This document shows positions 38,383 to 63,118 of a DNA stretch of 64,000 bases, in pieces; position 1 is the stretch's first letter, and every line of letters begins with the position of its first letter. The stretch lies in the sequence record PZ445551.1. The stretch is one strand, 5' to 3'. Both the position numbers and the translations under genes were made by a program. The DNA comes from a phage. The notes under the pieces were generated by a model. It had not been told where the DNA came from, made no database searches, and saw nothing but the letters and a program-made list of their open reading frames with translations.

Positions 38383-38402
38383 AAAAGGGGCTTTCGCCCC
38401 TT
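38383..38402 (-). terminator. hairpin + U-tract module directly upstream of SD
   Basis: GGGGCGAAAGCCCC then TTTTTTCTTAT on minus strand. Confidence 0.5.
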
Positions 38403-38409
38403 GGTCAAG

Positions 38410-39222
38410 TTACTTAGTCAAATGATCTTCTATCATTTTTATGAAAGCAGGATTGCTAAAAGCATCTGCTGCCTTTTCTCTATAAACAAAGACTCCTCTA
38501 TCTTCGTAAAGAAGAGTTTCTTCGTAATTAATTCCTGGGTTAACAACAATCATTTTTATACCCATAGTAAGTGCAGGGAATAATTCCCAATTAAAATTGA
38601 TAACTTGGTTTGAACATCCTACTACAACAACCAAATCTTGCATGGTCAAAGTATCAAACAAGTGAGCCATATCTGCATACAAAGGTGCAGCCTCACCAAA
38701 AAATACAACATTAGGCTTCACCCAGTTATAATCATCTATGTTTATACTATTGTAACCAATGTCTACCAGTGTTTTGTAATCTCCAGGGTGCATACGGTAA
38801 ACTACTTCAGGAAGATACCCGTGCACGTGAATAACAGAATCCCTGTCCACACCTGCTCGCTCTAGTAGATCATCAACGTTTGTTGTCAAGTTTACTACTT
38901 GGTTAGGATATTCCTTAAACCACTTTGCTATTTGAATATGTGCAGCATTAGGTTGTACATCTTTAAGCTCAACACGTCTTTTGTTATAAAATTCGTGTGT
39001 TTTGGCATACAAGTCCATACCGTTCTCGTCTACACCACCGACCACTGGAAGATCTGGAGATGTTCTCACACGATAACCTGCTTGGAAAGCTCCAATATCG
39101 CAGACCTCTTCTAAATCATATTCTTCCCACAAGGCACGACCACTATCTGTGTCTGTTCGGAATGTTCGAATCCCACTGTCTGCACTTAAACCTGCGCCAC
39201 TAACAAAAATTACTCTTCGCAT
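38410..39222 (-). CDS. Sir2-family NAD-dependent deacylase or ADP-ribosyltransferase-like protein
   Basis: GAGLSADSGIRTFR, TTNVDDLLERAG, HVHG, VVFFGE, LVVVVGCS; no CxxC zinc-binding pairs. Confidence 0.8.
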   Translation of the reverse strand: MRRVIFVSGAGLSADSGIRTFRTDTDSGRALWEEYDLEEVCDIGAFQAGYRVRTSPDLPVVGGVDENGMDLYAKTHEFYNKRRVELKDVQPNAAHIQIAKWFKEYPNQVVNLTTNVDDLLERAGVDRDSVIHVHGYLPEVVYRMHPGDYKTLVDIGYNSINIDDYNWVKPNVVFFGEAAPLYADMAHLFDTLTMQDLVVVVGCSNQVINFNWELFPALTMGIKMIVVNPGINYEETLLYEDRGVFVYREKAADAFSNPAFIKMIEDHLTK

Positions 39223-39764
39223 TCAATATCCTCTTCGTAATCATCATCCCAAGAAGATGCGTCGTAACGCTCTTCCTCTTCGAAATCCCAATTAATTTCT
39301 ACTCCAAAATCTAAAAACAATTTAACAATGTTTTCTGTAGAGTAGTATTTATCATAAGCGTCAGCTAGTTCCCAATACTTGTCACTCAATTTTTTATATT
39401 TAGGATCATTATAGTCATAATCTACTTTATAACCATAATCATACATCTCTTGTTCAGCTTTAAGCATAGCTTCTGGTGTAAGAAGATTAGGGAACGGACG
39501 ATTTCTTTCTTTTAACTTAGAAACAATCCAGTTTGCAACATTTGCCACTTCACCATCTTGATTATCACCTAAACAACTTGCATAATCTCCATCTTCGTAA
39601 GTGCCTAAATCCCCACAGACCACATGTACAATACTTGAATACGATCCACACGTTTCACAATCTGAAAAAGTGTCTACTGTTGTAATATCAATAGATAAAA
39701 CTGGTAAAGCCATAGCTTCTTTCACACAAGCCTCCTCATATAATAACATATCATCAAAACCCAT
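39210..39764 (-). CDS. highly acidic Cys/Tyr-rich hypothetical protein
   Basis: Start refined to MGFDDML with SD GGAGGA; C-terminus WDFEEEERYDASSWDDDYEEDIECEE. Confidence 0.5.
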   Translation of the reverse strand: MGFDDMLLYEEACVKEAMALPVLSIDITTVDTFSDCETCGSYSSIVHVVCGDLGTYEDGDYASCLGDNQDGEVANVANWIVSKLKERNRPFPNLLTPEAMLKAEQEMYDYGYKVDYDYNDPKYKKLSDKYWELADAYDKYYSTENIVKLFLDFGVEINWDFEEEERYDASSWDDDYEEDIECEE

Positions 39765-39783
39765 ATATCCTCCACACAAATAA

Positions 39784-39803
39784 AGCCCCTGATTGGGGCT
39801 TTG
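39784..39803 (-). terminator. hairpin + U-tract module upstream of SD
   Basis: AGCCCCAATCAGGGGCT then TTTATTTGT on minus strand. Confidence 0.45.
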
Positions 39804-39818
39804 GTTAAGTTTTACGGA

Positions 39819-40427
39819 TTATACCAGACTTTTAAGGTACTTGTCAAGGGCTTCTTGATCACCTTGACAAACATAGCAACGGAAGTCTTGAGCAGAAGGT
39901 TCTTTGTCCTCGTCCCAATCCCAATAGACAGTACCTTTATAACGTGAGCCTGGGAACTCGAAATATGCTGTATGAGTAATATGATGTGGGCCACCCCAAA
40001 ACTGTGTAAAAGTAAATTGAGGATACGCTGCTTTAACTGTATTTTCAAACCAAGTTTTACGATCTAATGCTTCGTTTATAAAATAAGCATGGCGTTCCAT
40101 TTCATCCCAGTTTTTCCAAACGCATTTTTCATCCAGAGAAAAAACAAAATCTTCACTGTTGAATTCATCTGTATCTTCCAAAATATCATAATCATGTGCA
40201 CTAGGTATCCACCATCCAGCTTCTAATAGTGCTTTCACGGGTACAAAACCTTTTTCAGCATATTGATCAAATTCTTTTACTCTACGTACAGTGCAGTATT
40301 CATCTTCACCACCAATGTCCAGTAGAAAAGCACCTTTGCGTCTTGCTGCAAGACCATGTGTATCAAAAACTACAACACTACCTTCACCATCTTCACGATC
40401 TACTTGATATGCAACTTTTTGAGTCAT
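39819..40427 (-). CDS. hypothetical protein (about 202 aa)
   Basis: Start refined to MTQKVAYQ; longer track ORF starts at a TTG. Confidence 0.5.
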   Translation of the reverse strand: MTQKVAYQVDREDGEGSVVVFDTHGLAARRKGAFLLDIGGEDEYCTVRRVKEFDQYAEKGFVPVKALLEAGWWIPSAHDYDILEDTDEFNSEDFVFSLDEKCVWKNWDEMERHAYFINEALDRKTWFENTVKAAYPQFTFTQFWGGPHHITHTAYFEFPGSRYKGTVYWDWDEDKEPSAQDFRCYVCQGDQEALDKYLKSLV

Positions 40428-40551
40428 ATTACCCCCCAATGTACATGGGAAATTAACCAAAAGATAAATTCCCAAAAACACCAACCAAGAAAAGTTAATG
40501 GAATTATAAAAGCTATCAGAGCAGTCTTCCAGCCTTTCCACAATGTTTCCA

Positions 40552-41541
40552 CTATTCCTCCATACATTTAAGAATATGTGCAATGACAGGTATAGTCCAA
40601 CCGTTACCTAACATCTTATATGCTTGTGTGTTACTACTCACTTTAAAGTAATCATCTGGAACACCTTGTAAGCGGCAACACTCTTTAACCGTTAACTTTC
40701 TATAATGTACGCCTTCACTCAATTTTTCAAAGGCATCTAGATATCTTCCAGGTGGAATGTAGGCTAATAGTACGTCTTTAGGCACAGTCGTGAGGCAACG
40801 AGTTTTTTCACTGTCCTGAACTTCCAAACAATGTACCAAACGATCAGTTTTAGATGTACTACGTTTGCCATTTTCATTAATTCTACGCCCATATATTGCT
40901 GCCGGATAAAAAACCAGTTGTCTGCGACTCTTTTCAAAATACTGTTCTATATTACCACCTTTGGCATAATTTGCATCTATGCAATAAGCCTTATCTCTGT
41001 CTACAATACTATCATCTTCAATTATATCTTGCAACACTTCATTGGTAATCTCCCAGGGTTTTATTTCCCAGTTGCACCAGTATAAACGTTGTCTATTCTG
41101 TGCCGTGAAATCTGCGGAGTTAATGAATACGGGATCAACACCTAAGTAACTTGTGATCACGTTTTCCCACTCCATTTTCATCTTAACGTTTTCAAGCATG
41201 AACTTAACATTAGGATTAAACTTTTTAATATGTTCAAGAATTTCAACATATTCGAAGAATAGCTTAGATCGTGGATCTTGAAAGTTCAAACCCTTACCAG
41301 AAGAAGAGAAGCCTTGACACGGACTACCACCTAACAAAAGATCAATTTCTCCCCACGGGATATCCCATTCTCTCCATTTTGTAACATCACCTAACTGAAT
41401 AATATCTGGAAAATTTGCTTGGCTTTCAGCTACGGCAAATTTGTCTAATTCTGAAGCGTAATATGTATCTACTTCAATACCTGCACTTTTTAGCGCAAGC
41501 ATTCCTCCTGACATACCATCAAAAAGACTTAAAACTTTCAT
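40552..41541 (-). CDS. dcm: DNA (cytosine-5)-methyltransferase
   Basis: Motif I LFDGMSGG, motif IV GSPCQGFS, motif VI ENVKMK, QNRQRLYW, GNGWTIPV. Confidence 0.85.
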   Translation of the reverse strand: MKVLSLFDGMSGGMLALKSAGIEVDTYYASELDKFAVAESQANFPDIIQLGDVTKWREWDIPWGEIDLLLGGSPCQGFSSSGKGLNFQDPRSKLFFEYVEILEHIKKFNPNVKFMLENVKMKMEWENVITSYLGVDPVFINSADFTAQNRQRLYWCNWEIKPWEITNEVLQDIIEDDSIVDRDKAYCIDANYAKGGNIEQYFEKSRRQLVFYPAAIYGRRINENGKRSTSKTDRLVHCLEVQDSEKTRCLTTVPKDVLLAYIPPGRYLDAFEKLSEGVHYRKLTVKECCRLQGVPDDYFKVSSNTQAYKMLGNGWTIPVIAHILKCMEE

Positions 41542-41543
41542 TA

Positions 41544-41954
41544 TTACTTCTTCTCCTTAACACTAGCTGGTAATTCTGCCTTGAGGCAGAAGTTTAAACG
41601 GTAAGCCTCATTCTCATTTAAAAGTACAGATTCACACGATAACCAGAACAAGAGATCCTCAATACCAGGACTGTTAAGCCAACAGTGCAGAAGAGAATGT
41701 TGTTCTATATCAATGTAATTTAGTAACAAGGCTTGTAAGGCGTAACTAGTTCCTGTCGTTTTTGCTTTTTCAAGGATGATATTGTGTTTACTAACAACTT
41801 TCTTCCTAAGACCAAACCATTTATTAACAACAACAGTCTCTTCTTGTAGTTGTTTTCTTATTTTCTCACATTCTTTAACTACAATCTGCATCTTATCCAC
41901 TGCTGATTGAAGTTGTTCTTTTGTTGGGTTTACAAAATAATCACTATAATACAT
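41544..41954 (-). CDS. hypothetical protein (136 aa)
   Basis: Preceded on minus strand by terminator, TTGACA-N17-TAGACT promoter-like element and SD GAGGAG. Confidence 0.55.
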   Translation of the reverse strand: MYYSDYFVNPTKEQLQSAVDKMQIVVKECEKIRKQLQEETVVVNKWFGLRKKVVSKHNIILEKAKTTGTSYALQALLLNYIDIEQHSLLHCWLNSPGIEDLLFWLSCESVLLNENEAYRLNFCLKAELPASVKEKK

Positions 41955-42007
41955 GCTAAACTCCTCTTCTGTTTTTCTGTAGTCTATTCGAAAAAACTGG
42001 TGTTGTC

Positions 42008-42033
42008 AACAAAAAACCCGCCGAAGCGGGTTT
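42008..42033 (-). terminator. rho-independent terminator
   Basis: ACCCGCTTCGGCGGGT followed by TTTTTTG on minus strand. Confidence 0.6.
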
Positions 42034-42036
42034 ATA

Positions 42037-42294
42037 TTATTCTACAGGAACTTCTTCACCAAGAGAAACTTCTAAACGGAATGCTTTACTTTCAATACAT
42101 TCACTACCTTTTAGAAAATCAAATTGCACTATAGACTGACTTAATAGGATAGATAGAATCACATCACAATCTTCACTAGGAGCTAGATGTTTGTATTCTT
42201 CCTTCAAGGTAACATCATAAAAACATAAATCCCCTACTCCTAGTTCATCCCATCCTTCCCACGCATCTACAAAGTTAAACTCTAAACCTTTCAT
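42037..42294 (-). CDS. hypothetical protein (85 aa)
   Basis: ORF in same-strand block. Confidence 0.5.
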   Translation of the reverse strand: MKGLEFNFVDAWEGWDELGVGDLCFYDVTLKEEYKHLAPSEDCDVILSILLSQSIVQFDFLKGSECIESKAFRLEVSLGEEVPVE

Positions 42295-42815
42295 ACAACC
42301 TCCTCGTAATTGTTATTGTGTTTTACTGTCTCAACATACAATAAAGATTCCATCTGTAATACATTACCAGAAATAATAAACCCATAAGCCATTTCAGATG
42401 TGTCTATATCATATGCCCCGTCTTCCGGTTTAGCAAAGTGTAAAACTATTTCATCTGGGTTTTCTTCATCCCATAGTTTAGAAATTTTCCGAACCAGAAT
42501 GTTAGCTAAAATAGTTGACATTCGGGATAAAGCTGTATCCTCATATCTTTTAAAACCTAGCCAATAGAGGTTAAGAATTTCTACTTCTTCTTGTGTTAAG
42601 TTTTTGTCTAAAGTAATCAGATCTGTAGAGCACGGCGTTTTTGTTGAACCTACGGTTACAAAACCTGGAGTGTTATGAAAAACAATCTTAACTTTATCAC
42701 GTATAAAGTTTAAACCTTGTGCCTCAACTATATATTGTATTGTAGGTACAATATCGTTTGTTACATCAATAAAACTATCTTTAATGACGCTTATATTATT
42801 TCTGGACAAGACCAT
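42291..42815 (-). CDS. hypothetical protein (174 aa)
   Basis: ATGA overlap. Confidence 0.55.
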   Translation of the reverse strand: MVLSRNNISVIKDSFIDVTNDIVPTIQYIVEAQGLNFIRDKVKIVFHNTPGFVTVGSTKTPCSTDLITLDKNLTQEEVEILNLYWLGFKRYEDTALSRMSTILANILVRKISKLWDEENPDEIVLHFAKPEDGAYDIDTSEMAYGFIISGNVLQMESLLYVETVKHNNNYEEVV

Positions 42816-43374
42816 TCTCCTCTAAAATAGGCTTAATAAACTCGAAAATTTGTTTTTTACTTTTACCTCGAATATTAAAACAAGGAACATTAAACTTTTT
42901 AGCCAACATCCAAGCTGTTCTTGTACCACCTAAAGGATCTCCATTTTTATCTGTATTTGCACAAGCTAAAAGAAAACAAGATGGTTTTGGATTCTCAAGA
43001 TCTCTTCCAAGAACTTGGTGAATATTTCTTTGATGTAATTTTTTAGAACCTTGAGATAATCTGTCCCAAGCTGGATGCAATTCTTTTGCATATTGCAAGG
43101 TTAGAGCATAGTTTACACTATCTGGTCTGTCAAGAACAATAACCTCTCCCTCTATTTCATTACCTTTAAACGAGAGCCAAGGGATGTATATTTCTTTCTT
43201 TGTATTGTTCCCACTATCATATACCCCGCATTCAAATGCGGAATCTGCACCTGCTGCTTTACCAGATCGCAAAATGAACCATGTAGATAACCATTTTGCA
43301 ACAGATACCATAGTATCCCATTCTTCGTCTGTAATATCTCTGCTACCAACACCTGTGTAGAATAAATCGCTCAT
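42796..43374 (-). CDS. DprA/Smf-like (SLOG superfamily) Rossmann-fold protein
   Basis: TGVGSRDIT, SGKAAGADSAFECG, HQRNIHQVLG, GGTRTAW pattern resembles DprA Rossmann core; start refined with SD AAGGAG. Confidence 0.5.
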   Translation of the reverse strand: MSDLFYTGVGSRDITDEEWDTMVSVAKWLSTWFILRSGKAAGADSAFECGVYDSGNNTKKEIYIPWLSFKGNEIEGEVIVLDRPDSVNYALTLQYAKELHPAWDRLSQGSKKLHQRNIHQVLGRDLENPKPSCFLLACANTDKNGDPLGGTRTAWMLAKKFNVPCFNIRGKSKKQIFEFIKPILEENGLVQK

Positions 43375-43384
43375 GGTTTTCTCC

Positions 43385-43705
43385 TTAACAAGTAATATTG
43401 GGAGTAACAATTGGATTAACAATTGGAGTAATAGGGTACGTAAACCAAGGGCTTCCAATTTCCCAAGGATTATAAGGTCTACGAGGATCAAATGGAGGAG
43501 TTACTTCAGGCTTTTTCCAAATCTCCGCTAGTTGTTTCTTCCATTTATCCCTTGCTGTCTCATTATCTTCATCCAACTGTTCATCATTATCTTTTATTTC
43601 TGGTTTTGGAAATAAAAGCTCTTTGACTAACTCAACATCTTCCGTCTCAATAGTAGTTTCTTTCGTAAGTTCTCCTACTGTTTCTTTAATTGTGATTTTA
43701 TACAT
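43385..43705 (-). CDS. hypothetical protein with Pro-rich C-terminus (106 aa)
   Basis: ORF in same-strand block. Confidence 0.5.
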   Translation of the reverse strand: MYKITIKETVGELTKETTIETEDVELVKELLFPKPEIKDNDEQLDEDNETARDKWKKQLAEIWKKPEVTPPFDPRRPYNPWEIGSPWFTYPITPIVNPIVTPNITC

Positions 43706-44448
43706 TAGTCCTCCTCTAAAGTAGAATAAAATTGTAACGTATTTGAATCATCAAAATATGCAAAGGTTAAATTACCATTGAAGCAAGATCCTGTGTCCAT
43801 ATATACCCTATTACTGCTAATCACAGGTTTAGGAACATAAGAATGCCCGTGAAATACATAATCTACTCCTGAAACCCTAGGGAGAAGAATTCCTTCAAGT
43901 GCGCAATCTATCATATCACGATCCCACATTAAAGATTCTGTGAATCGAGAAACTTGCTCTTTATTCATATTCAAACAAAATGGCAAAACTTCTGTCACTG
44001 GTAAATGTTTCAAAACTGAAGGATACCCACCGTGAATAAAGCCTAGTTTCATATTACGATAATTGACAACAAGTACAACAGGTAAATCTTCTAGCATCAA
44101 AGCAAGAGCAGTTGCACCCTCTTCTCCACACTCGTCTAGAACTGTATGGCCTCCGTTCTGAAACCAACATTCGTAATATCGTCTATCACCTTCTAGCAAC
44201 CCTTTAATCATCATATCTTCATGATTTCCACGAATACCATAACGATTTAGCTTTCTGGTGAATTCAACAACACAACGAAAATTCTGCTTGCCGCGATCTG
44301 TAAGATCTCCTAAAGATACAACAACATCTTGATCTCGGATACCTAAAGTATTAACACCTTTCTGGTACAAATCAAAGCAACCATGTAAATCACCAATAAT
44401 AAACAGGTCTTGATCATCTTTTACACTAATTTCTTGATATACTAGCAT
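43705..44448 (-). CDS. serine/threonine protein phosphatase (PPP / lambda-PPase family metallophosphoesterase)
   Basis: GDLHGC, GDLTDRG, GNHE, GHS motifs; start refined to ATG overlapping upstream stop. Confidence 0.85.
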   Translation of the reverse strand: MLVYQEISVKDDQDLFIIGDLHGCFDLYQKGVNTLGIRDQDVVVSLGDLTDRGKQNFRCVVEFTRKLNRYGIRGNHEDMMIKGLLEGDRRYYECWFQNGGHTVLDECGEEGATALALMLEDLPVVLVVNYRNMKLGFIHGGYPSVLKHLPVTEVLPFCLNMNKEQVSRFTESLMWDRDMIDCALEGILLPRVSGVDYVFHGHSYVPKPVISSNRVYMDTGSCFNGNLTFAYFDDSNTLQFYSTLEED

Positions 44449-44774
44449 CAACTCTCCTCAAAATCCATAAGTATAAAGATATTAACTTTACCTTCTATAT
44501 TATGTTCTACAACAAGATCTGCAAATTCTTTGTAGGCTTTTTCTTCTATTTGTTCAATGTGAGACGCTACATCTTTGTATATAGCGTCACCATCTACTTT
44601 AACAAGGAGGAATAGAGATCTTACTTCAATCTCTTTATTTTTACGGGGTAGAAAATCGACGGCTTCTTGTATACGCCAGCCGAGATACCCTGGAGTCCTT
44701 TGAATATCCTCCAAATGACTTTCTAAGATTTCCCTTCCTTTGTCTATTAAAGCCTGTTCTGTCGTTATTTTCAT
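44448..44774 (-). CDS. hypothetical protein (108 aa)
   Basis: ORF in same-strand block. Confidence 0.55.
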   Translation of the reverse strand: MKITTEQALIDKGREILESHLEDIQRTPGYLGWRIQEAVDFLPRKNKEIEVRSLFLLVKVDGDAIYKDVASHIEQIEEKAYKEFADLVVEHNIEGKVNIFILMDFEES

Positions 44775-44784
44775 CCCCTTCTCC

Positions 44785-45357
44785 TTAATGTGTTAATGAA
44801 ACTGCGTAACTAAACACAGGTTCAGATATTACATCGGCTACAGTAATAAAAACGTCTTCGTCTTGAGTTGTTTCTACACGACATACAGTTACACCATTCA
44901 CCACGAATTCAACGCAATGTGGAATATCTTCACAAACGAAGGTAGTGTAAGTAACACCCAAAGCATCATACAAAGATTTAACAGTGTTTGCAAGTGCCGC
45001 AGTTTCTTCTTTTTCTGAGACAATGAATGCTGTAACAACAAGATTGTTTGCATAGTTTAGACTGTCCTCTATAGCCAATGATTTACAAGGTAGTAATGCA
45101 AAATATTTACCTGGTTTAATCAGACCTGCTTCCCATTGATTCAAAATTGCTTGGGATGGTTTAGTAATATAAAACAGATTTTCACTTGGGTTATCAATAT
45201 TACTTCTGGCGATACAACGTGAAGGATTATTAATATCAAACACATGATCAAAATCTACACAAACTGGTAAACTGAAAGGTGTGAATTTTTTACCTAATAA
45301 TCCTACTGCTGACAATATGTTTGCTGTGCTTATCTTCCCGTTAAAAGCTAAACGCAT
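44785..45357 (-). CDS. hypothetical protein (190 aa)
   Basis: ORF in same-strand block. Confidence 0.55.
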   Translation of the reverse strand: MRLAFNGKISTANILSAVGLLGKKFTPFSLPVCVDFDHVFDINNPSRCIARSNIDNPSENLFYITKPSQAILNQWEAGLIKPGKYFALLPCKSLAIEDSLNYANNLVVTAFIVSEKEETAALANTVKSLYDALGVTYTTFVCEDIPHCVEFVVNGVTVCRVETTQDEDVFITVADVISEPVFSYAVSLTH

Positions 45358-46244: not shown

Positions 46245-46301
46245 AATACCCTCCTGTTCTGTTACAGGAAGTATGCACTACCTTAACGTTAAAGTCAACA
46301 G

Positions 46302-47688: not shown

Positions 47689-47708
47689 TAACCCCCTTGC
47701 GGGGGTTT
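47689..47708 (-). terminator. hairpin + short U-tract upstream of SD
   Basis: ACCCCCGCAAGGGGGT then TTATT on minus strand. Confidence 0.4.
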
Positions 47709-48861: not shown

Positions 48862-48897
48862 TTAACCTCCATAACAGGCATCCTTGCCTTGTAATTA

Positions 48898-49650
48898 TTA
48901 ATATACTTCCGTGATGAACTGAGACAAACGGGAACGTTGGTTATCAGCAGTTGTCATTTCAACATAACCAATAAAATCCACAATAGCTTCCCTTTCTCCT
49001 TCTTCATTAATAGGAACAACACGATCTAACAAATCACCTAACCCGTTAGCTCTTCGTTTAATTGCATATGTTTGATTAACATCACCCATAATGACAATAC
49101 GTGTATTAAGACCTGCTCGCTCAAGGAGAAGTTTTACTGTATTTGGTGACATAAGTTGAACTTCATCAATAAGAATAATGCTGTTATCCCACGTAGCACC
49201 TAGTGCATAGTTTGGAATATTAAGTTCAATTTTGCCACTTGCAATATCGTTTTCCAATTTATTTGCAGTCATAAACTGTTGGAAAATTCTTTTAGTTGAT
49301 TCGTAGTGTGCTGCTAGTTTATCAGTCTTATCTCCAGATAAGAAACCAATTTGATCATCACCTACTTCTGTCGGGTTTTTAAGGAAAATCAACTTTCTGA
49401 AATCACCAGCTTTAAGCATTTGCAATGCTTTCCACAGTGCTGTTGTCGTTTTTCCTGTTCCTGCTGGGGCATTAACAATGGTTAAATCATTCCAAACCAT
49501 GCTTCTTACAATAGCTTCTTGATTCCCAACAGGGGTAAATTCATCAAGACGGTAATCATCATTTCCTACTGCTTTAGCCGCATAACGACTGGCACGTTTG
49601 TCATCATTGGCTGCTGATTGACGACGAGCCTTTGCGGTTTTATTTCCCAT
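48898..49650 (-). CDS. phoH: PhoH-like ATPase
   Basis: NAPAGTGKTT Walker A, IIDEVQLM Walker B, IVIMGDVNQ. Confidence 0.8.
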   Translation of the reverse strand: MGNKTAKARRQSAANDDKRASRYAAKAVGNDDYRLDEFTPVGNQEAIVRSMVWNDLTIVNAPAGTGKTTTALWKALQMLKAGDFRKLIFLKNPTEVGDDQIGFLSGDKTDKLAAHYESTKRIFQQFMTANKLENDIASGKIELNIPNYALGATWDNSIILIDEVQLMSPNTVKLLLERAGLNTRIVIMGDVNQTYAIKRRANGLGDLLDRVVPINEEGEREAIVDFIGYVEMTTADNQRSRLSQFITEVY

Positions 49651-49661
49651 GTTTGCACTCC

Positions 49662-49686
49662 TTATAAAAGGGGCTTTCGCCCCTTT
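49662..49686 (-). terminator. hairpin + U-tract module between lysozyme and phoH
   Basis: GGGGCGAAAGCCCC then TTTTAT, then SD GGAGTG on minus strand. Confidence 0.5.
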
Positions 49687-54538: not shown

Positions 54539-54540
54539 TA

Positions 54541-56027: not shown

Positions 56028-56048
56028 TCTCCTCAATAAAAAGGGGCC
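56028..56048 (-). terminator. hairpin + U-tract module upstream of nrdB SD
   Basis: GGGGTTTCGGCCCC then TTTTTTATT, SD GAGGAG on minus strand. Confidence 0.5.
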
Positions 56049-56063
56049 GAAACCCCTTGATGT

Positions 56064-56720
56064 TTAGCCTTGGAACACTGTTTTTGTTTCTGCCAAGTGA
56101 TAGTATAAATCTGCCTTGTTTATAAGAGTGTTGTATACCTCTTGACAAAAATGTTCTTCCTCTTTGTAACGATTCGCTGTTTCCCTGATCGACTTGGCTT
56201 TATCTTTTAACCAAGCGAAGTGTGCCTCTTCCTCTGTAGCGAAATAGCCTAAATGCTTGCTTTTGCTTCCAGAAGTTTTGGCATAAATCTTGCCATCTTT
56301 CCTAATATGCGCTCCGAGTAAGTATTTCCTTTTATGTCTCTTGGCATAACTTAAAAGTGTATTGATATAGGGAGGAACAAACCTACAATATTCAGGACAA
56401 TAGACAGTATTTCCCTCAAGAACAAGATCTTTGTCTAAAACAAAACCTTCGACATTGTGTTCTTGATACCAATTATCAAAATTTGAAAAAGTAAACCAAG
56501 CATCACAGACGGTAACATCTTTATACCCTGGTCTAATATCTTCCATCTTATATGCACGATGAAACATGCCTTTCCAAGCTGCATAGGAAGGGTCTATGAA
56601 TGTGTTAACCCTTTTCCCGTTGACAACGCCACCTTCCCACAATCTACGTTCAACATCCACAATCAAGGGGATTTCTCCCCTCTCTGTGAGAACAGTAACT
56701 TTACGTTTACCCTTCTTCAC
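56064..56720 (-). CDS. putative homing endonuclease (AP2-like DNA-binding segment) between nrdA and nrdB
   Basis: HLGYFATEEEAHFAW AP2-like segment; position matches intergenic homing-endonuclease insertions in T-even nrd loci. Confidence 0.45.
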   Translation of the reverse strand: MKKGKRKVTVLTERGEIPLIVDVERRLWEGGVVNGKRVNTFIDPSYAAWKGMFHRAYKMEDIRPGYKDVTVCDAWFTFSNFDNWYQEHNVEGFVLDKDLVLEGNTVYCPEYCRFVPPYINTLLSYAKRHKRKYLLGAHIRKDGKIYAKTSGSKSKHLGYFATEEEAHFAWLKDKAKSIRETANRYKEEEHFCQEVYNTLINKADLYYHLAETKTVFQG

Positions 56721-56728
56721 CTGTCCTC

Positions 56729-58993
56729 CTACATTTTACAGGCGCTACACCCCTCGTCTTCAGAATCTTCTTGAGCGAGTGAGGATGCCGATTTTGTTCT
56801 GCTATTTAGATAGTACAAAGATTTACCACCAAGTTTTGCAAACTGAAGAATATATTGCATTTCTGATTTAATGGATAAACGACCACCTTCCATCTTAGAG
56901 TAGTCAATCCACTTATCACATGATGCACCTTGATCTAAGAATTTAGTCAACAGGCCATATGCTTCAGCCATATCTTTATCTGGCGTATCCCAAGCCGATT
57001 GGTAAATATCTTTTAGTTTATCGTAATCTGGCACAATAAACAGAACATTACCTTTTTGGCTTTGTTTATAAACTATAGTATCACGTACAGGATACACAGA
57101 GTTAGTCGTATTACTTACAAGACTACTGGACTCATTTGGAGCAATAGCTGCTAATACGCTATTTCGGATACCACCTTGTGCAATGATATCTTGTCGTAAA
57201 CCTTCCCAATCCATTTTAAGTTTAAAATTGCCAATATCGTCTACAGCTTTAGCGTAGGTGTCAATAGGCAACCATCCTTCAGGCCATTTGGTTTTATGCA
57301 TCCATTCTGCATTACCTTTCTCTTTTGCCAAACGAAGAGAAGCTCTTGCTAACCAATAATAATGTCTTTCTGCTAATTCGTGAATTAGTTTTTTGCCGTA
57401 AGGATCTGAATAAGTAACAAAATTACTTGCCAGATAATGTGCAAGGTTTGTAATACCTACACCGATAGACCTACGTGCTTTAGCAGTGATTTCGTTATGT
57501 TTAAACGGATACTGCATTGTTTCAATAACATTATCAATAGTCAGAACGGTATAATATGCAACATCTTCATATTCTTCTGGTGTAACACGACCAGCTACAA
57601 TAGAAGACAGGAAGCATAATGCCAATTCTTGATCTTCTGTATTCTCACCTGTGAAAAGATCAGTCATATTGTGAAATGCTTTCGTAGGTAAGAAAATTTC
57701 TTGGCACAAGTTTGACTGGTAAATAACATCCTTAAACGGAGTATGTTTATTAGCATTATCCGCAAAGAACATATAAATACGTCCTGTCTCTGCTCTTTGT
57801 GTAATAATTTCTGCCAGAAGATCTCGTGCTTTTACAAACTTCTTCTTAATTCGTTTGCGACTAACTTTTTCATATACTTCTTCAAACTCTTCCTCGCTTT
57901 TATAAAGCGCCTCATAGAGTTCTGGTGCTTCGTCATAACTGACTAGCATCCAATCTTTACCTTTTGCTGCACGGCGCAGGAAAGCATTGTTTACTACAAT
58001 AGAGTAATCAAGTTTATCTACTCGTTTTTCACTAACAGTAGTTGGGTTTTTCAAACGTACCAGATCTTCAAAATCAGGTTCTAGTATTGTAAACGTTACT
58101 GTTGCACTTCCACCACGGCTTGCTTGTTTTGATGCTCCAACACTTGTTTCCATCCATTTCAGATATGGTAAAAGACCACCGTGAACGATACGGTTGTTCT
58201 TAACACCTTGTCCTGTAGCACGGGTTTGGAGGTTAACACCAATACCTGCATTATTCAATGTATATTCATGAGCAAGATAGTTAGCAATTGCTAAAGATTC
58301 TGCTGTATCATCTGCTCTAAACAGGCAACAAGAAGCACTACCTTTAATCTTAGTACGCAAAGTTGTTAAATAAGGTGATGGTAAGTTAATCTTAAGATCA
58401 CTTACGTAGGTATATAGACGTTTAATGTCTTCTACTCTGCGATCTTTTGGTTGAATTTCCATTACCTTCATTGCTACACCAATGAATAAAAACTGTGGTG
58501 ATTCAAAAACAACATCATTGATCGCATCTTTCACAAGATACTTATCAACCATCTGGCGCAGTACGGAATAACCATAAGTTAGGTTTTTATCGTGATTGAC
58601 AATTTTACCAATCTCAATAATTTCTTCTTCTGTATAATCCATTTTTCCCCAATAGCCTTTACTTACAGCCATATTGTAGAAATCCAGGAGGGAGGGGATA
58701 TTATGATATCCCCCATGAGCCTGTTTATAAATCATACCAAGAAGTAACCGACCTGCCATATCACTATATGCCTGATCTTTCTTATCAATACATGCTGCTA
58801 TCATAGCTTTATGTAAATCACGAGTAGGCACACCGTCGTAACAACGTTTAACAGCTTCAAGTTCAATTTCAGACCAATTTAATTTACCAGCAGCAAACTC
58901 TGACCATTTACGAAGTTTTTCTGGATTAAATTCTTCTTTCTTGCCGTTTGTTTTTGTTACATAACGGATAGATTTGCTTAGATACTGAGTCAC
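56729..58993 (-). CDS. nrdA: ribonucleotide reductase class Ia alpha subunit
   Basis: 754 aa; SNLCQEI, TGRIYMFF, C-terminal GCSACKM Cys pair; probable GTG start. Confidence 0.93.
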   Translation of the reverse strand: MTQYLSKSIRYVTKTNGKKEEFNPEKLRKWSEFAAGKLNWSEIELEAVKRCYDGVPTRDLHKAMIAACIDKKDQAYSDMAGRLLLGMIYKQAHGGYHNIPSLLDFYNMAVSKGYWGKMDYTEEEIIEIGKIVNHDKNLTYGYSVLRQMVDKYLVKDAINDVVFESPQFLFIGVAMKVMEIQPKDRRVEDIKRLYTYVSDLKINLPSPYLTTLRTKIKGSASCCLFRADDTAESLAIANYLAHEYTLNNAGIGVNLQTRATGQGVKNNRIVHGGLLPYLKWMETSVGASKQASRGGSATVTFTILEPDFEDLVRLKNPTTVSEKRVDKLDYSIVVNNAFLRRAAKGKDWMLVSYDEAPELYEALYKSEEEFEEVYEKVSRKRIKKKFVKARDLLAEIITQRAETGRIYMFFADNANKHTPFKDVIYQSNLCQEIFLPTKAFHNMTDLFTGENTEDQELALCFLSSIVAGRVTPEEYEDVAYYTVLTIDNVIETMQYPFKHNEITAKARRSIGVGITNLAHYLASNFVTYSDPYGKKLIHELAERHYYWLARASLRLAKEKGNAEWMHKTKWPEGWLPIDTYAKAVDDIGNFKLKMDWEGLRQDIIAQGGIRNSVLAAIAPNESSSLVSNTTNSVYPVRDTIVYKQSQKGNVLFIVPDYDKLKDIYQSAWDTPDKDMAEAYGLLTKFLDQGASCDKWIDYSKMEGGRLSIKSEMQYILQFAKLGGKSLYYLNSRTKSASSLAQEDSEDEGCSACKM

Positions 58994-59004
58994 TTCCTCT
59001 CCTA

Positions 59005-59265
59005 TTAATTATGCATATTTAGAACATCTACATCATAACCGCCACGCATCTCGTTATATAAGCCATTTGCGTATAGAAAACCTTCAAAATGATCTATACC
59101 TTCAAAACCTTTTGCCTTTGCTTTGCGGTCTGCTTCTTGTCTTTTTGGAGATAATCTTTTAGATGTATCAAGGATAACTGTTACATTGCAACCTAATGTT
59201 TCATCAAAATAGACTTCAATTTCACAGCCTTCATATTTATTACTTTCTGTCATTTGGCCTCTCAA
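59005..59265 (-). CDS. hypothetical protein (86 aa)
   Basis: ORF in same-strand block. Confidence 0.5.
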   Translation of the reverse strand: MRGQMTESNKYEGCEIEVYFDETLGCNVTVILDTSKRLSPKRQEADRKAKAKGFEGIDHFEGFLYANGLYNEMRGGYDVDVLNMHN

Positions 59266-59676
59266 TTAGAATTCAGAATCATCATCTCGTGATGGATCAT
59301 GTTCATTTCCGAAGTCTTCCATTTTGATATGAGAGCTACCCCAACCTGTAAAATCTTCTTCTCCAAAGTGCAAAATATCCACACCTTGATAGATTCGTTT
59401 ATATTTATAGTCTTGACGAACTGGGAAAGTATACAATGTAGTATTTGCAAACACCACACGTCGATTGTTGTTACTACGAATATTAACACCACGTTCTACT
59501 GTATAATGTCCATCGGTAGACATACCAAGCATTACTAATGCTGCTCGCAATGTAGTGTTATGATACTCGTGAGGAATTTTTCCTCCGTGCTTTTTAGCCA
59601 TTTCTTTCCAGATCGGTGTAGCCTTAATGGTAGACATACTTACGGTCGCCCAAATGGTTGTATTAATTAGTGACAT
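59266..59676 (-). CDS. hypothetical protein (136 aa)
   Basis: ORF in same-strand block. Confidence 0.55.
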   Translation of the reverse strand: MSLINTTIWATVSMSTIKATPIWKEMAKKHGGKIPHEYHNTTLRAALVMLGMSTDGHYTVERGVNIRSNNNRRVVFANTTLYTFPVRQDYKYKRIYQGVDILHFGEEDFTGWGSSHIKMEDFGNEHDPSRDDDSEF

Positions 59677-59773
59677 AAATTCTCCTTCTCTCTTTTAAGG
59701 AGAGCATAGCTCTCCTAACGTTAGCCTATACTACACGAATCTCAATTAAAAGTCAACTATAATTTTAAGTTGA

Positions 59774-60745
59774 TCACCATTTTGTATGGTTAGTCAAAAG
59801 TTGACGATGTTGAATCCAACCACAGAAGTTTCCACTCCACAAACGATGTTTACGATCCATATGTGTAATACCTTCTTCCCAAGAGGAAGGGAACGGAGGA
59901 ATATTAATACCACCTTTCTGTTGTTTTAATCCTGACAAATCCATTTCTTTCATTGGCGTTGCCTGGTGTTCAAACGGAGATGCATGTACCTTTTGTCCAG
60001 ACAGCAAACGAGAATAGATATCCAATGCTTTATCTTTAGTATCATTCAACTTACGATAACTTACCTGAGCGCAACAAGAAGCTGAAATAGCTTTTGCTTC
60101 ATCTTCTGTCAACATTTTCTCGTTGGAGAAGGTTTCACCCAAGAAATAACGGATCATACCAGTTTCTGGATCTCGATCACGATTAACGTAAGGTGTATGC
60201 CACTCCCCTGGGAAAAGAAGATATGGTTCAGAAGATTCATACAGTTTTTTAATTTCTTTAGCAAGAGCCTCAATAGTAGGATCTGCATCAGCATCTACGC
60301 GCAACCACAAGAAGTTTTCTAATTCTGTAGTGGTTACTACAGTCTTCATACGCTGGAATGGTTCTAGTAGTCGGTTTGCAACCTGTTTATGATAACCAGC
60401 AAGGGCAAACTCTTCTGCAAAACGTGCAGCACTTAGTGCAGCCAAGTCCCACCATTCTTTTGCAGTGTAACCTGCATCAATCAGGGCATCGTGATCTGTG
60501 CCTTTATCTTGCATACCTGGTTGGTTAGCACCAAAACGATAAGGACGTGCTGGAGATTGCCGTACCATTTCAATCAGGGTTTTAACAGGGATAGCTCGAC
60601 TTGATGCGGCATTACGAGAAAACAAACGATGCGTCATCAACTCAGAGTGAATGATTCGAGGATATTCAAGTTCAAAGGTAACAATATCCTTACCTTCAGA
60701 TGTTTGAGAGTGTGCAATAATTTTTGCTGAAATAGAATCTGTCAT
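59774..60745 (-). CDS. thyX: ThyX-like (flavin-dependent thymidylate synthase family) protein, divergent
   Basis: IVTFELEYPRIIHSELMTHRLFSRNAASSRA aligns to ThyX core but reads THR where canonical motif is RHR; 323 aa, longer than typical. Confidence 0.6.
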   Translation of the reverse strand: MTDSISAKIIAHSQTSEGKDIVTFELEYPRIIHSELMTHRLFSRNAASSRAIPVKTLIEMVRQSPARPYRFGANQPGMQDKGTDHDALIDAGYTAKEWWDLAALSAARFAEEFALAGYHKQVANRLLEPFQRMKTVVTTTELENFLWLRVDADADPTIEALAKEIKKLYESSEPYLLFPGEWHTPYVNRDRDPETGMIRYFLGETFSNEKMLTEDEAKAISASCCAQVSYRKLNDTKDKALDIYSRLLSGQKVHASPFEHQATPMKEMDLSGLKQQKGGINIPPFPSSWEEGITHMDRKHRLWSGNFCGWIQHRQLLTNHTKW

Positions 60746-60754
60746 TGTTTCTCC

Positions 60755-61345
60755 TTAAGGTAGTAAAATACTTTCAATTTCTTCCCACTGATTATCTAAA
60801 CCAGTGATAATTACATTAGGAAGTTTCTTTAACTCTTCCAAATATGGATCTTCGTAAATAGTGTTGAAATATATTTTCAACGTTTCATCTGGAAACAGGA
60901 CAAGATTTTCAGCCCTATCATCAATAGTTACGTCGCAAGGCAATAAGTATTTTTCTTTTGTTGCGAAAAAACCATTACCAGATGTTCTACTAAAATCCAC
61001 TTTATCTAAAGACCGTGTTACGTGTCTATATTTAGAACTAAGGTGTCCACCCTTAGTGTGGCTTGCTATAGATATATTAGCTCCATTTGCAATTATACGA
61101 TGAACAACATCTGTACTATTAGGTACTACTCCCATAGTATCATATAGATGTTGGTTATCCCAAAAAGAGTAAGGATCAACACCAAATTGCTTTTTAAAAT
61201 CAGGGAAATATTTCGTAATATCATAATGCACAGTTTTATGTGTATTATCAAATTTGATATTAGATCTACTTACCGCATTTAACCAATTTAACCACTCTAT
61301 ATCCGCAGGAGCTATTACTAAATCCCAATCACATACTAGACGCAT
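60755..61345 (-). CDS. putative 5'(3')-deoxyribonucleotidase-like HAD-family protein
   Basis: Start refined to MRLVCDWDLVIAP with SD AGGAG; C-terminal LPCDVTIDDRAENL resembles NT5C-type motif. Confidence 0.45.
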   Translation of the reverse strand: MRLVCDWDLVIAPADIEWLNWLNAVSRSNIKFDNTHKTVHYDITKYFPDFKKQFGVDPYSFWDNQHLYDTMGVVPNSTDVVHRIIANGANISIASHTKGGHLSSKYRHVTRSLDKVDFSRTSGNGFFATKEKYLLPCDVTIDDRAENLVLFPDETLKIYFNTIYEDPYLEELKKLPNVIITGLDNQWEEIESILLP

Positions 61346-61892
61346 TATTTCTCCTGTTATAACATTTTCTACACATTGTTTCGTAAATGTCTTCTCCCCC
61401 AATAACAATCTGTTCTTTAGAGTCGATAAGTCTAGCATTGAAAATAGCTTTTCTTCCACATTTACAAATGCTTTTCAATTCTGTAATTGAATCTGCTATG
61501 GCTAATAACCGTTCAGAACCTTCAAACAATTCTGTAGCAAAATCTGTTTTAAGTCCATAACAGAATACAGGAATATCGTAATTATCTACCACATCTCCAA
61601 GAATGTCAACCATATCTTTAGTTAGGAATTGTGATTCGTCCACAAATACTGCATCTACTGGATTTTCTTTAAGCTGTGTATAAATTTCCAGCATATCTTC
61701 TTTTGTTTTAACTGGTTTTGCTTCCTCTTTAATACCTATCCTAGAAGCAATAGCACTACCAGATCTGGTATCTAAAGCTGAAGTTAAAAGAAGAACTTTC
61801 ATATTTCTTTCTTTATAGTTCCAAGCTGTTTGTAGAAGATGTGTGCTTTTACCACTGTTCATTGGACTATATCGGAAATAAAGTTTAGCCAT
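61329..61892 (-). CDS. tdk: thymidine kinase
   Basis: MAKLYFRYSPMNSGKST, FVDESQFL, CYGLKTDF, CKCGRKA...CRKCY. Confidence 0.93.
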   Translation of the reverse strand: MAKLYFRYSPMNSGKSTHLLQTAWNYKERNMKVLLLTSALDTRSGSAIASRIGIKEEAKPVKTKEDMLEIYTQLKENPVDAVFVDESQFLTKDMVDILGDVVDNYDIPVFCYGLKTDFATELFEGSERLLAIADSITELKSICKCGRKAIFNARLIDSKEQIVIGGEDIYETMCRKCYNRRNNASSM

Positions 61893-61937
61893 ATTTTCTC
61901 CTCTAACGCTCCCATTTGTGGGAGCGATAATACTTTA

Positions 61938-62513
61938 TTATTTCTCTTCGTCAAGAAGAATTTTTACTATCTGTTTTCTTCGCTTATTTACTGTACTTTC
62001 TGGTGAAATTCCGCGCTTCGTTAGCCAATTTTTATCCTTTTTAGACTGGCACAAAGCTATCGCTTCCTTCTCCGCTTTTGCTTCCCTGAATGTCATATCG
62101 TGCTTGTCAGCATAAGCCAGGATAGCGTTACACTGCTTACAAACTACACGCAGGTCGTCTTCTGTTACATACAATAGGCGTAAAACAAAACTTGGGATAT
62201 CTTCATAACAGGTTAATGTACCTGCTGCATTAATATGGTCTACTTGAAAGTCTTTCATACCTCCTGTGTGTCCACACAATTCACATTTACAATTCCAAAC
62301 CTGTTTCGGTTTGCCTGTTTTCTTATCTAAAACTATATTGCCATCTTTATCCAATCTATCGGCTTTAAATCGTACAGATTGGATCTTTTTTATCTTATTC
62401 GGGTGTCTCACCCATGCTTTCCTTAAGCAACCCCTTAAATATGTATAAAAGGCTGCTTGAGTTTTCCAAGGTGTTCCATCTCCCCAAATAACTTTAGGTT
62501 CTTTATTTTCCAA
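61938..62513 (-). CDS. HNH endonuclease
   Basis: CELCGHTGGMKDFQVDHINAAG ... VVCKQCNAI HNH motif. Confidence 0.65.
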   Translation of the reverse strand: MENKEPKVIWGDGTPWKTQAAFYTYLRGCLRKAWVRHPNKIKKIQSVRFKADRLDKDGNIVLDKKTGKPKQVWNCKCELCGHTGGMKDFQVDHINAAGTLTCYEDIPSFVLRLLYVTEDDLRVVCKQCNAILAYADKHDMTFREAKAEKEAIALCQSKKDKNWLTKRGISPESTVNKRRKQIVKILLDEEK

Positions 62514-62697
62514 TAGTGCTCACCTTTTTAGCTACATAATCTCCAGGTGGAATGTTATACTTAAAGAAAAGCATACGGTCTAAACCAGCCTTACACATGT
62601 TTTCTGGGATTGTGATTGTATATAAGAGTTTATCTCCACGTTTATTGTATATTTTATATACTTCACCCTCTCCGTATTGTTTACCGTGAGAAGCCAT
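62503..62697 (-). CDS. hypothetical protein (64 aa)
   Basis: ORF in same-strand block. Confidence 0.5.
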   Translation of the reverse strand: MASHGKQYGEGEVYKIYNKRGDKLLYTITIPENMCKAGLDRMLFFKYNIPPGDYVAKKVSTIGK

Positions 62698-63082
62698 CTA
62701 CACTCTCCTTCAATTGTTCAATAGCATCTGCTGCTTCAATGTACTTACCTTTATACATTGCTTTTAAAGCCTTACGAACAAGATCATCGTCTGTGTATAA
62801 ATCAATTAGCTGGTTAGCTAACTCAATTTTTACAGGGTTTTTTAGATTAGGGTAGGCTTCATACAACATATTGTAATACTTATCACTTAATTCTTTTTCA
62901 ATATGAATAACGTGAATCGCTTTGTTTAGGTTGATCACACGATCACCTTTGTTTCGACAAGCATACTTAGCTAACTTAGTGAAACAAGGAGTTGCACCAA
63001 TTAGATATGCAAGTTCCAAAGGTTGCATACGCATACGTTTGTAGTGATCACCATCAATTTGAATATCCAGTGCTGTAGTCAT
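62681..63082 (-). CDS. hypothetical protein (133 aa)
   Basis: Preceded by hairpin + T-run + SD GGAGGA on minus strand. Confidence 0.55.
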   Translation of the reverse strand: MTTALDIQIDGDHYKRMRMQPLELAYLIGATPCFTKLAKYACRNKGDRVINLNKAIHVIHIEKELSDKYYNMLYEAYPNLKNPVKIELANQLIDLYTDDDLVRKALKAMYKGKYIEAADAIEQLKESVDGFSR

Positions 63083-63095
63083 AAATCCTCCAAAA

Positions 63096-63118
63096 ATAAA
63101 GGGGCTTTCGCCCCTTTT
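63096..63118 (-). terminator. hairpin + U-tract module upstream of SD
   Basis: GGGGCGAAAGCCCC then TTTATTTTT on minus strand. Confidence 0.5.

Follow-up and report, generated by a model that had tools for sequence, protein, structure and literature searches.

Recurrent tetraloop hairpins at gene junctions of Escherichia phage VivaForever: candidate partial terminators and putative 3'-end-protecting elements

The GC-rich hairpins that recur at gene junctions of the phi92-like Escherichia phage VivaForever are best read as stable RNA hairpins, which would act as partial intrinsic terminators where a U-tract follows and would combine weak termination with 3'-end protection where the following sequence is U-poor. 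We give this reading a probability of about 0.7. What is shown is their sequence and structure, their conservation at the RNA level and in position, and agreement between terminator predictors. Judged from their sequence, the modules do not form one class. Those at 38386, 63100, 42017, and 56041 look like canonical intrinsic terminators, and the copy at 49669 and the variant at 47691 would more likely be weak terminators or hairpins that protect 3' ends. The window is the whole stretch of DNA analysed, 64,000 nucleotides of record PZ445551.1, and positions refer to it unless they are given as record positions.

The first-pass annotation had described one identical hairpin at 38386, 49669, and 63100, and this was borne out. 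The exact 16-mer AGGGGCTTTCGCCCCT was found on the plus strand at 38386-38401, 49669-49684, and 63100-63115, with a chance expectation of 0.01. With up to 2 mismatches allowed there were four matches (the fourth is a 2-mismatch copy at 56666, within a CDS), a number that none of 100 shuffles matched. On the sense (minus) strand, the sequence of each exact copy is (A)AAGGGGC-GAAA-GCCCCTT(T), after which come a T-rich stretch, GGAG, and ATG. The hairpin lies 2-7 nt after the stop codon and 15-20 nt before the ATG. The T-run, SD, and ATG described for these copies were present at 38386 and 63100, where T fills 8 of the 9 nt that follow the GC core; the copy at 49669 has the SD and ATG but only 5 T (UUUUAUAAG), which makes the T-run uneven among the copies. 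The variants listed at 39786, 42017, 47691, and 56032 all exist, except that the last was placed about 10 nt off its hairpin, 56041-56058. Beyond that list, our scan found hairpins at 59698-59716, 61907-61926, and 46250-46271 and a bidirectional one at 38014-38035. The three copies and the variants have stems of 7-8 bp, loops of 4-5 nt, and dG values of -9.5 to -13.4 kcal/mol. The three exact copies gave folding z-scores of -2.4 to -3.5, within a range of -1.1 (56041) to -3.8 over the intergenic modules. The features are given below, with T counted in the 9 nt after the stem.

38362-38402, minus strand: J1 module; hairpin AAGGGGC-GAAA-GCCCCTT at 38385-38402, then UUUUCUUAUA, SD GGAG at 38371-38374, and ATG at 38362-38364 of the last gene (85 aa); downstream of a Sir2-like gene; dG about -12.5; 8/9 T
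49648-49686, minus strand: J7 module; hairpin AAAGGGGC-GAAA-GCCCCTTT at 49667-49686, then UAUAA, SD GGAG at 49658-49661, and ATG of a PhoH-like gene; poor U-tract, 5/9 T
63080-63117, minus strand: J11 module; hairpin AAAGGGGC-GAAA-GCCCCTTT at 63098-63117, then AUUUUU, SD GGAGG at 63087-63091, and ATG; downstream of a DNA polymerase exonuclease-subunit gene; 8/9 T
56041-56058, minus strand: J8 hairpin AAGGGGU-UUCG-GCCCCTT, then UUUAUUG, between nrdA (plus an inserted HNH gene) and nrdB; 7/9 T
42014-42033, minus strand: J3 hairpin AAACCCGC-UUCG-GCGGGTTT, then UUUG; adjoins a TTGACA-17-TAGACT promoter (42009-41981), forming a terminator-promoter boundary; 8/9 T
47690-47707, minus strand: J5 hairpin AACCCCC-GCAA-GGGGGTT, then AUUAGGAGG; downstream of an HslV-like gene; U-tract absent, 4/9 T
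39782-39802, minus strand: J2 hairpin AAAGCCCC-AAUCA-GGGGCTTT, then AUUUGUGUGG; begins about 9 nt past the transcription start predicted for a perfect sigma70 promoter (39847-39818; 12/12, extended -10); 7/9 T
59698-59716, minus strand: J9 5'-leader hairpin AGGAGAGC-UAU-GCUCUCCU, downstream of promoter TTGACT-17-TAGTAT; U-tract absent
61907-61926, minus strand: J10 hairpin CGCTCCCA-CAAA-TGGGAGCG, then UUAGAGGAG; U-tract absent
38014-38035, neither strand assigned: predicted bidirectional terminator CCCCTAGAA-GCGA-TTCTAGGGG, at the meeting point of the rightward and leftward gene blocks, where the GC skew changes sign

The leftward block at 38-64 kb has 11 intergenic gaps that measure 30 nt or more, and 10 of them contain a stable hairpin. 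Between 38050 and 64000, 10 sense hairpins with dG <= -9 kcal/mol fell in 781 nt of intergenic sequence and 8 in 25,170 nt of coding sequence, an enrichment of about 40-fold (binomial p = 2e-11). The junction hairpins start 2-16 nt after stop codons in sense orientation. Genome-wide, GNRA/UNCG loops were on the sense strand in 18 intergenic tetraloop hairpins and on the antisense strand in 1 (binomial p ~4e-5), and the sole antisense case is the predicted bidirectional terminator at the point of convergence. The tetraloops seen were GAAA, GCAA, UUCG, and UCCG, and the closing pair was C-G in 21 of 22 hairpins. Upstream A-richness and downstream T-richness were symmetric (5.8 vs 6.1), so the flanks alone give no direction of transcription. 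The strand bias of the loops, the C-G closing pair, and the retention of orthologous hairpins point to selection on RNA stability.

The placement directly before ribosome-binding sites, from which leaky termination had been argued, is present but is mostly a matter of genome compaction, as 93% of the window is coding. Its spacing is very narrow and conserved, with 2-11 nt from the stop codon and 4-10 nt to the GGAG, and it could also be that of translational insulators or enhancers, whose stable stem right before the SD would prevent base pairing between the ribosome-binding site and the coding RNA upstream and would tune or uncouple reinitiation between adjacent genes. Retention of the hairpin at sites that lack a U-tract fits such a role. 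We consider it very unlikely, since most junctions in the block (35 of 46, with gaps below 30 nt) have no such hairpin, a promoter instead of an SD follows at 42014, in the J11 relatives, and at record position 135284, and centroid structures predict no pairing with the SD.

The VivaForever genome holds five identical copies of the 14-mer, those outside the window being at record positions 54 and 135284. Such identity within one genome could suggest a repeat that is mobile or spread by recombination (REP/MITE-like) or a palindrome acting at the DNA level (protein-binding site, cruciform), and GAAA or UUCG on the same stem at orthologous sites could be copy-to-copy conversion. The identity is limited to 16-20 nt and ends at the A/T runs, and the flanks are not shared. 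Distant genera carry a hairpin at each of these sites, but its loop or stem differs; this occupancy indicates that the copies are old and vertically inherited. In addition, the 18:1 sense bias of the GNRA/UNCG loops is unexpected for a DNA-level palindrome, and an Rfam scan of the whole window at gathering thresholds gave 0 matches. The absence of flank identity, the ancient occupancy, and the strand-specific loop classes largely refute a mobile or DNA-level element, and we rejected it as extremely improbable. An RNase III processing site of the T7 early type was also rejected, because the stems are only 7-8 bp and such a site calls for a duplex of at least about 20 bp.

Junctions were compared with those of Phapecoctavirus, Klebsiella KP13-26, Citrobacter Tr1, and IMG/VR relatives. 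The results showed that orthologous junctions keep the hairpin with swapped loops (GAAA/GUAA/GCAA/UUCG) or compensated stems. J1 orthologues have the same stem with GAAA, UACG, or UUCG loops, and the J8 loop is UUCG in anhysbys and GAAA in Klebsiella KP13-26 and Citrobacter Tr1. The J3 orthologue of anhysbys reads AACCCGC-TTCG-GCGGGTT, then TTTTATTGACA. The J11 stems are GGGGC, CCCGC, GAGGGC, and GGGAGC, and a TTGACA promoter lies directly after the hairpin in several relatives. At J5 the stems (CCCCC, GCCCC, TGCCC, AGCCC, GCCTC) and the loops (GCAA, UCAC, UCAA, UUCG, UCCG, UUAG) both vary. J7 orthologues keep the stem with GUAA, GCAA, UUCG, UUU, or GUCAU loops, and all their tails are U-poor. 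The promoter-plus-hairpin arrangement of J2 is kept in Citrobacter Tr1 and Phapecoctavirus, and at J9 four genera keep the promoter together with a hairpin whose stem differs. In an alignment of orthologous and paralogous hairpins, double changes occurred in 5 of 7 pairs and 97% of cells paired, a figure that is partly by construction because the sequences were preselected as hairpins; trimming and alignment were done by hand. At four orthologous junctions the GGGGC/GCCCC stem stays the same and GAAA and UUCG replace each other. Concerted homogenisation of loops within genomes was considered, given the five GAAA copies of VivaForever and the three UUCG copies of anhysbys, and rejected, because other genomes mix loop classes and selection for stable loops suffices.

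The terminator scan called J1, J2, J3, J8, and J11 on the sense strand, and ARNOLD terminators are annotated in a related phage, NC_048196, at the junctions orthologous to these five. Neither predictor called 49669 or 47691; J7 had no sense-strand call in the scan, and its orthologue has no ARNOLD annotation in NC_048196. At these two sites the U-tract was absent in every relative examined, so something other than classical termination probably keeps the hairpins. A U-tract is also missing from the two exact copies at record positions 54 and 135284. At least 7 T in 9 nt after the stem were found in only 2 of the 5 exact genome copies and in 10 of the 18 tetraloop hairpins. The HUB rule describes GC...RU dinucleotides at the bubble edges and favours GC at the stem base (bioRxiv 10.64898/2026.05.29.728758). 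Compared by eye, RU follows each U-run (UUUUAU, UUUAU, UUUUUAU, UUUUUUGU), and the stem base is CC or GG, leaving only C at -10 possible.

The block had been described as one long leftward operon. This does not hold, as conserved sigma70-like promoters lie inside it at 39847, 42009, 46298, 59756, and 61609. The hairpins at 39786, 59698, and 46250 are just downstream of conserved sigma70-type promoters and are therefore 5'-leader hairpins as well. Promoter scans found no sigma70-like promoter between the hairpin and nrdB, before the three genes after 63100, or before the last 85-aa gene. Immediately upstream of the three exact copies promoters were absent from the scans, and only weak partial matches were seen by eye. 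Because the genes downstream have no recognisable promoter, terminators at 38386 and 63100 would have to be leaky. Phage-specific promoters outside the recognisable types might feed these genes, which would weaken the argument for leakiness. A literature search for transcriptomics of Phapecoctavirus, Justusliebigvirus, and Stephanstirmvirinae returned genome papers with predicted terminators only. The general proposal of leaky terminators or stability elements is supported by the sense-strand loops, the conservation, the ARNOLD annotations, and the promoterless downstream genes; a single class is not, given the missing U-tracts at 49669 and 47691.

The same missing U-tracts bear on the reading of the hairpins as mainly mRNA processing or stability elements instead of terminators. 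RNase E or a RegB-like phage nuclease would cleave the AU-rich/GGAG spacer, the hairpin would become the 3' end of the upstream mRNA, and by blocking PNPase and RNase II it would give neighbouring cistrons different half-lives. In its favour, all relatives keep the J7 and J5 hairpins but show no U-tract there, the sequence after 3 of the 5 exact copies is poor in U, and an AU-rich spacer and GGAG come after every hairpin. The loops are also of the extra-stable tetraloop type first noticed in phage T4 mRNA (PMC4371310). Against this, the canonical U-tracts of J1, J3, J8, and J11 are kept across genera, in some cases with a promoter next to them, and these are hallmarks of terminators. As the main role of all hairpins we find processing or stability rather unlikely, but the two roles are not mutually exclusive. 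A related, tentative view is that the kept U-poor hairpins (49667, 47690, record positions 54 and 135284) are a separate class of mRNA punctuation and that the GAAA/UUCG exchange is copy-to-copy conversion instead of independent mutation; we doubt it. Such a class could mark sites of processing, stabilise 3' ends, or insulate the ribosome-binding site.

In our preferred reading of partial termination with 3'-end protection, the hairpins would form in the sense transcripts at gene junctions. Their design is a 5-bp G/C core, a C-G closing pair, a GNRA/UNCG tetraloop, and flanking A and U runs. With their U-tracts, 38386, 63100, 42014, and 56041 would be factor-independent terminators for the host RNA polymerase. 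Since no recognisable promoter serves the genes immediately downstream, these would depend on read-through, and termination would be only partial. The stepwise attenuation would give overlapping transcripts with defined 3' ends. The U-poor hairpins at 49669 and 47690 would mainly shield upstream mRNA from 3'-to-5' exonucleases and terminate weakly. The identity of the copies would reflect how few sequences can form a hairpin of minimal length and maximal stability. Termination, leakiness, and stabilisation by the VivaForever hairpins are what we infer from these sequence features.

Overall, the repeated hairpin is real but ordinary, and it opens no new biological question. The analysis adds regulatory annotation to a phage record that had none, and its practical value is modest. 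It indicates that a GC hairpin before a ribosome-binding site is not always a terminator, as two classes split cleanly by conservation of the U-tract. The hairpins also form a compact natural set with graded U-tracts, which are candidate tunable terminators.

The exact 18-mer was found in at least 120 unrelated viral contigs, and at least 6 T in 9 nt followed it in 54 of the 80 contigs read. GGGGC-GAAA-GCCCC is a generic, very stable hairpin of a known kind, used between genes by many unrelated phages, presumably to terminate transcription or to form the ends of transcripts. A full-text literature search for the exact sequence GGGGCGAAAGCCCC returned no paper. Terminators have been predicted in other phages: 20 in rV5, in a paper that compares rV5 with phi92 and phAPEC8 (PMC3606486), and 55 in a Phapecoctavirus (PMC10612097). 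The VivaForever hairpins resemble intrinsic terminators of the ARNold/TransTermHP type, as in rV5 and phAPEC8-like phages, in the GC-rich stem of 7-8 bp, the tetraloop, the A-tract and U-tract, the position after the stop codon, and occasional bidirectional use. They differ in that 49669 and 47690 have only 4-5 U in 9 nt and the stem base is CC/GG, not GC, and they are predicted only. In Pseudomonas phage phiKZ, 61 terminators mapped by ONT-cappable-seq share one hairpin motif followed by TTAT; this phage uses its own RNA polymerases, and some of its terminators lie in 5' leaders just after promoters (PMC10914365). Both phages reuse one near-identical GC-rich hairpin between genes of a single genome, and the VivaForever hairpin at 39782 is likewise in a 5' leader. 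The sequence and the polymerase context differ, and the phiKZ sites were mapped by experiment whereas ours are predicted. For phage T4 mRNA, Tuerk et al. reportedly described extra-stable hairpins with C(UUCG)G and GNRA tetraloops in 1988. The T4 hairpins have the same loop classes and C-G closing pair in intercistronic mRNA, but T4 is of another phage lineage; GAAA is favoured in VivaForever and UUCG in its sister genera. BioBrick B1002 is a synthetic minimal terminator, CCCCGC-TTCG-GCGGGG flanked by A and T runs. Its design is almost the same as that of the VivaForever hairpin at 42014, AAACCCGC-TTCG-GCGGGTTTTTT, whereas the phage hairpins occur naturally, their flanks are shorter, and they directly abut a ribosome-binding site or a promoter.

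The window matches Escherichia phage VivaForever (PP925843.1, 146,096 bp) in reverse complement, with 100% identity for queries of 12 kb and 25 kb; a position w in the window is position 112201 - w in the record. VivaForever is a phi92-like phage and a member of Stephanstirmvirinae. Its leftward genes at 38.1-64 kb of the window include Sir2-like, methyltransferase, PhoH-like, nrdA/nrdB, thymidylate synthase and DNA polymerase exonuclease subunit genes, and record PP925843.1 carries no regulatory annotation. The GC skew flips sign at ~7.9 kb (leftward to rightward genes) and at ~38.05 kb (rightward to leftward), exactly where gene orientation switches, so the skew tracks transcription direction. 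Two records with C. jejuni as host, MG065639.1 and MG065689.1 ('Campylobacter phage A150' and 'Campylobacter phage A110a'), were 98.1% identical over 25 kb to the DNA of VivaForever, an E. coli phage. This suggests a host mislabel or contaminant in the two records.

The first-pass annotation described identical copies of AGGGGCTTTCGCCCCT at 38386, 49669 and 63100. All three are exact matches, the chance expectation being 0.01, and 0 of 100 shuffles gave as many matches as observed (4 at up to 2 mismatches). On the sense (-) strand they read (A)AAGGGGC-GAAA-GCCCCTT(T). Their placement before ribosome-binding sites was also borne out: the hairpin begins 2-7 nt after a stop codon, the next ATG follows 15-20 nt after the hairpin's end, and GGAG lies between. 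The four reported variants are real, but the coordinate 56032 was off by ~10 nt. The sites, all on the - strand, are as follows, with the number of T among the 9 nt that follow the GC core and the state of the orthologous junctions where compared.

Hairpins of the leftward gene block and their orthologous junctions
38385/38386 (J1): exact copy downstream of Sir2; 8 T; relatives retain the AAGGGGC/GCCCCTT stem with GAAA, UACG or UUCG loops and a T-rich tail
39782-39802 (J2): variant; 7 T
42014-42033 (J3): variant; 8 T
47690-47707 (J5): variant downstream of the HslV-like gene; 4 T; five different, compensated stems, some loops non-special, U-tract in none
49667/49669 (J7): exact copy upstream of phoH; 5 T; stem unchanged, with GAAA, GUAA, GCAA, UUCG, UUU and GUCAU loops
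56041-56058 (J8): variant downstream of nrdA; 7 T; VivaForever and anhysbys share a UUCG loop, KP13-26 and Tr1 a GAAA loop
63098/63100 (J11): exact copy downstream of the exonuclease subunit; 8 T; GGGGC, CCCGC, GAGGGC and GGGAGC stems, fully compensated, with T-rich tails

The block has 46 gene junctions, 11 of them with gaps of at least 30 nt, and a stable hairpin was present in 10 of these 11. Sense hairpins with dG <= -9 kcal/mol numbered 10 in 781 nt of intergenic sequence vs 8 in 25,170 nt of coding sequence, an enrichment of ~40-fold (p = 2e-11). The folding z-scores of the modules ranged from -1.1 to -3.8. A hairpin copy with two mismatches, GAGGGGA-GAAA-TCCCCTT (56665-56682), lies within the 5' coding part of an HNH endonuclease gene between nrdA and nrdB (56,064-56,720, - strand). 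This insertion is not present at that junction in anhysbys; a second HNH gene (61,938-62,513, - strand) is found upstream of the thymidine kinase gene.

Orthologous junctions were placed by protein similarity in Phapecoctavirus anhysbys, Schickermooser, Klebsiella phage KP13-26, Citrobacter phage Tr1 and IMG/VR contigs. The data indicate that positionally defined junctions retain a hairpin despite sequence turnover. In the hand-trimmed alignment, double changes occurred in 5 of 7 pairs and 97% of cells were paired, the latter partly by construction, because the aligned sequences were picked as hairpins. The tail of J7 is U-poor in all genomes compared, and its hairpin is missing in one distant relative. 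A weak hairpin of the GGCA-AGGA-TGCC type (48,862-48,897, - strand, ~-6 kcal/mol) separates the PhoH-like gene from the next one and keeps its position and approximate sequence in four genera, though it is too weak for a terminator.

The loops show a clear strand preference. All five exact copies of GGGGCGAAAGCCCC in the VivaForever genome are intergenic with GAAA on the sense strand. Genome-wide, 18 intergenic tetraloop hairpins have a sense-strand loop of the GNRA or UNCG class (8 GAAA, 8 UUCG, 1 UCCG and 1 GCAA). The only antisense reading belongs to a bidirectional terminator at 38014-38035, a convergent junction where both strands are sense. If orientation were random, such an 18-to-1 bias would have a probability of ~4e-5. 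Of the 22 hairpins aligned, 21 close the loop with C-G, regardless of stem polarity. GNRA and UNCG loops with C-G closing are thermodynamically extra-stable classes known from rRNA and T4 mRNA (PMC4371310). These results indicate that the hairpins act at the RNA level. One 20-mer hairpin, AAACCCGC-TTCG-GCGGGTTT, is identical at 37,640-37,659 (+) and 42,014-42,033 (-), on opposite DNA strands yet sense for the local genes in both cases; its UCCG variant lies at 10,595-10,616.

A consensus terminator scan of the sense strand called 38385, 39782, 42014, 56041 and 63098, and made no call at 49667 or 47690. The authors of NC_048196 annotated ARNOLD terminators at its counterparts of J1, J2, J3, J8 and J11, but not at those of J5 and J7. 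The two predictors agree. At least 7 T in 9 were present after 10 of the 18 tetraloop hairpins genome-wide and, among the five exact copies, only after J1 and J11. The T-run attributed to every module exists at 38386 and 63100 (8/9 T) but not at 49669 (5/9 T).

The modules had been proposed to be leaky terminators or processing and stability elements. This proposal is partly supported. The copies at 38386 and 63100 have T-rich tails and calls by both predictors; 49669 lacks a U-tract and was not called. Together with 42014 and 56041, the copies at 38386 and 63100 are probably conventional, leaky intrinsic terminators. No sigma70-like promoter was found between the J1 hairpin and the 85-aa last gene, between J8 and nrdB, or between J11 and the three genes after it. 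These genes would need read-through, unless unrecognised phage-specific promoters exist, and we infer that J1, J8 and J11 are leaky. In anhysbys and four IMG/VR loci, the J11 hairpin is followed directly by a TTGACA promoter. The hairpins at 49669 and 47690 are conserved elements without a U-tract, which may serve in weak termination, 3'-end protection or RBS insulation.

The exact 18-mer AAGGGGCGAAAGCCCCTT was found in at least 120 IMG/VR stretches on unrelated contigs of 4-257 kb, with at least 6 T in the following 9 nt in 54 of the 80 stretches read. Identity among the VivaForever copies ends at the A and T runs. On this evidence the likeliest origin of the copies is recurrent use of the shortest hairpin that is very stable, and a mobile repeat was rejected.

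The hairpins at 39782, 46250 and 59698 lie immediately downstream of conserved sigma70-type promoters and are 5'-leader hairpins too. The promoter at 39847-39818 matches sigma70 at 12/12 positions. It is a perfect TTGACA-18-TATAAT consensus with an extended -10, overlapping the upstream gene's stop codon, and the terminator-like hairpin and T-tract follow ~9 nt past the predicted start site. This arrangement (39,782-39,847, - strand) is kept in Citrobacter Tr1 and Phapecoctavirus. Terminators mapped within phage 5' UTRs have precedent (PMC10914365).

Thirteen repeated early-region cassettes occur on the + strand at 13,800-23,000 (for example 14225, 16915, 17796, 20104 and 21980; 13868, 17232, 20470 and 20905). 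In each, a sigma70-like promoter (TTGACA-N16/17-TAnnAT) is followed after ~7-10 nt by a conserved hairpin, a purine-rich SD and a small-ORF ATG. Seven of the cassettes carry the hairpin GGCGGGAAA-TGG-TTTCCCGCC or a close variant, the loop being TAG in two of these; GGGCGGCA-ATAG-TGCCGCTC accounts for four more, and the stems of the remaining two differ from both. Such a hairpin would lie within a few nt of the early-transcript 5' end, resembling a 5' stabilising stem-loop. Whereas the GAAA hairpin is generic, the exact 21-mer cassette hairpin was found in only two close-relative IMG/VR contigs; the cassette hairpins look more lineage-specific and more interesting.

The repeated hairpins are an already known kind of element. 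A literature search found no transcript mapping for Stephanstirmvirinae. A preprint (bioRxiv 10.64898/2026.05.29.728758) extends the definition of a terminator by bubble-edge GC...RU dinucleotides. In the modules here RU follows the U-run, but the base of the stem is CC or GG; if that rule holds, this is in keeping with a moderate efficiency, not a maximal one. For related phages, reports of predicted Rho-independent terminators are routine, with 20 in rV5 (PMC3606486) and 55 in a Phapecoctavirus (PMC10612097), and in phiKZ 61 experimentally mapped terminators share one common hairpin motif (PMC10914365).
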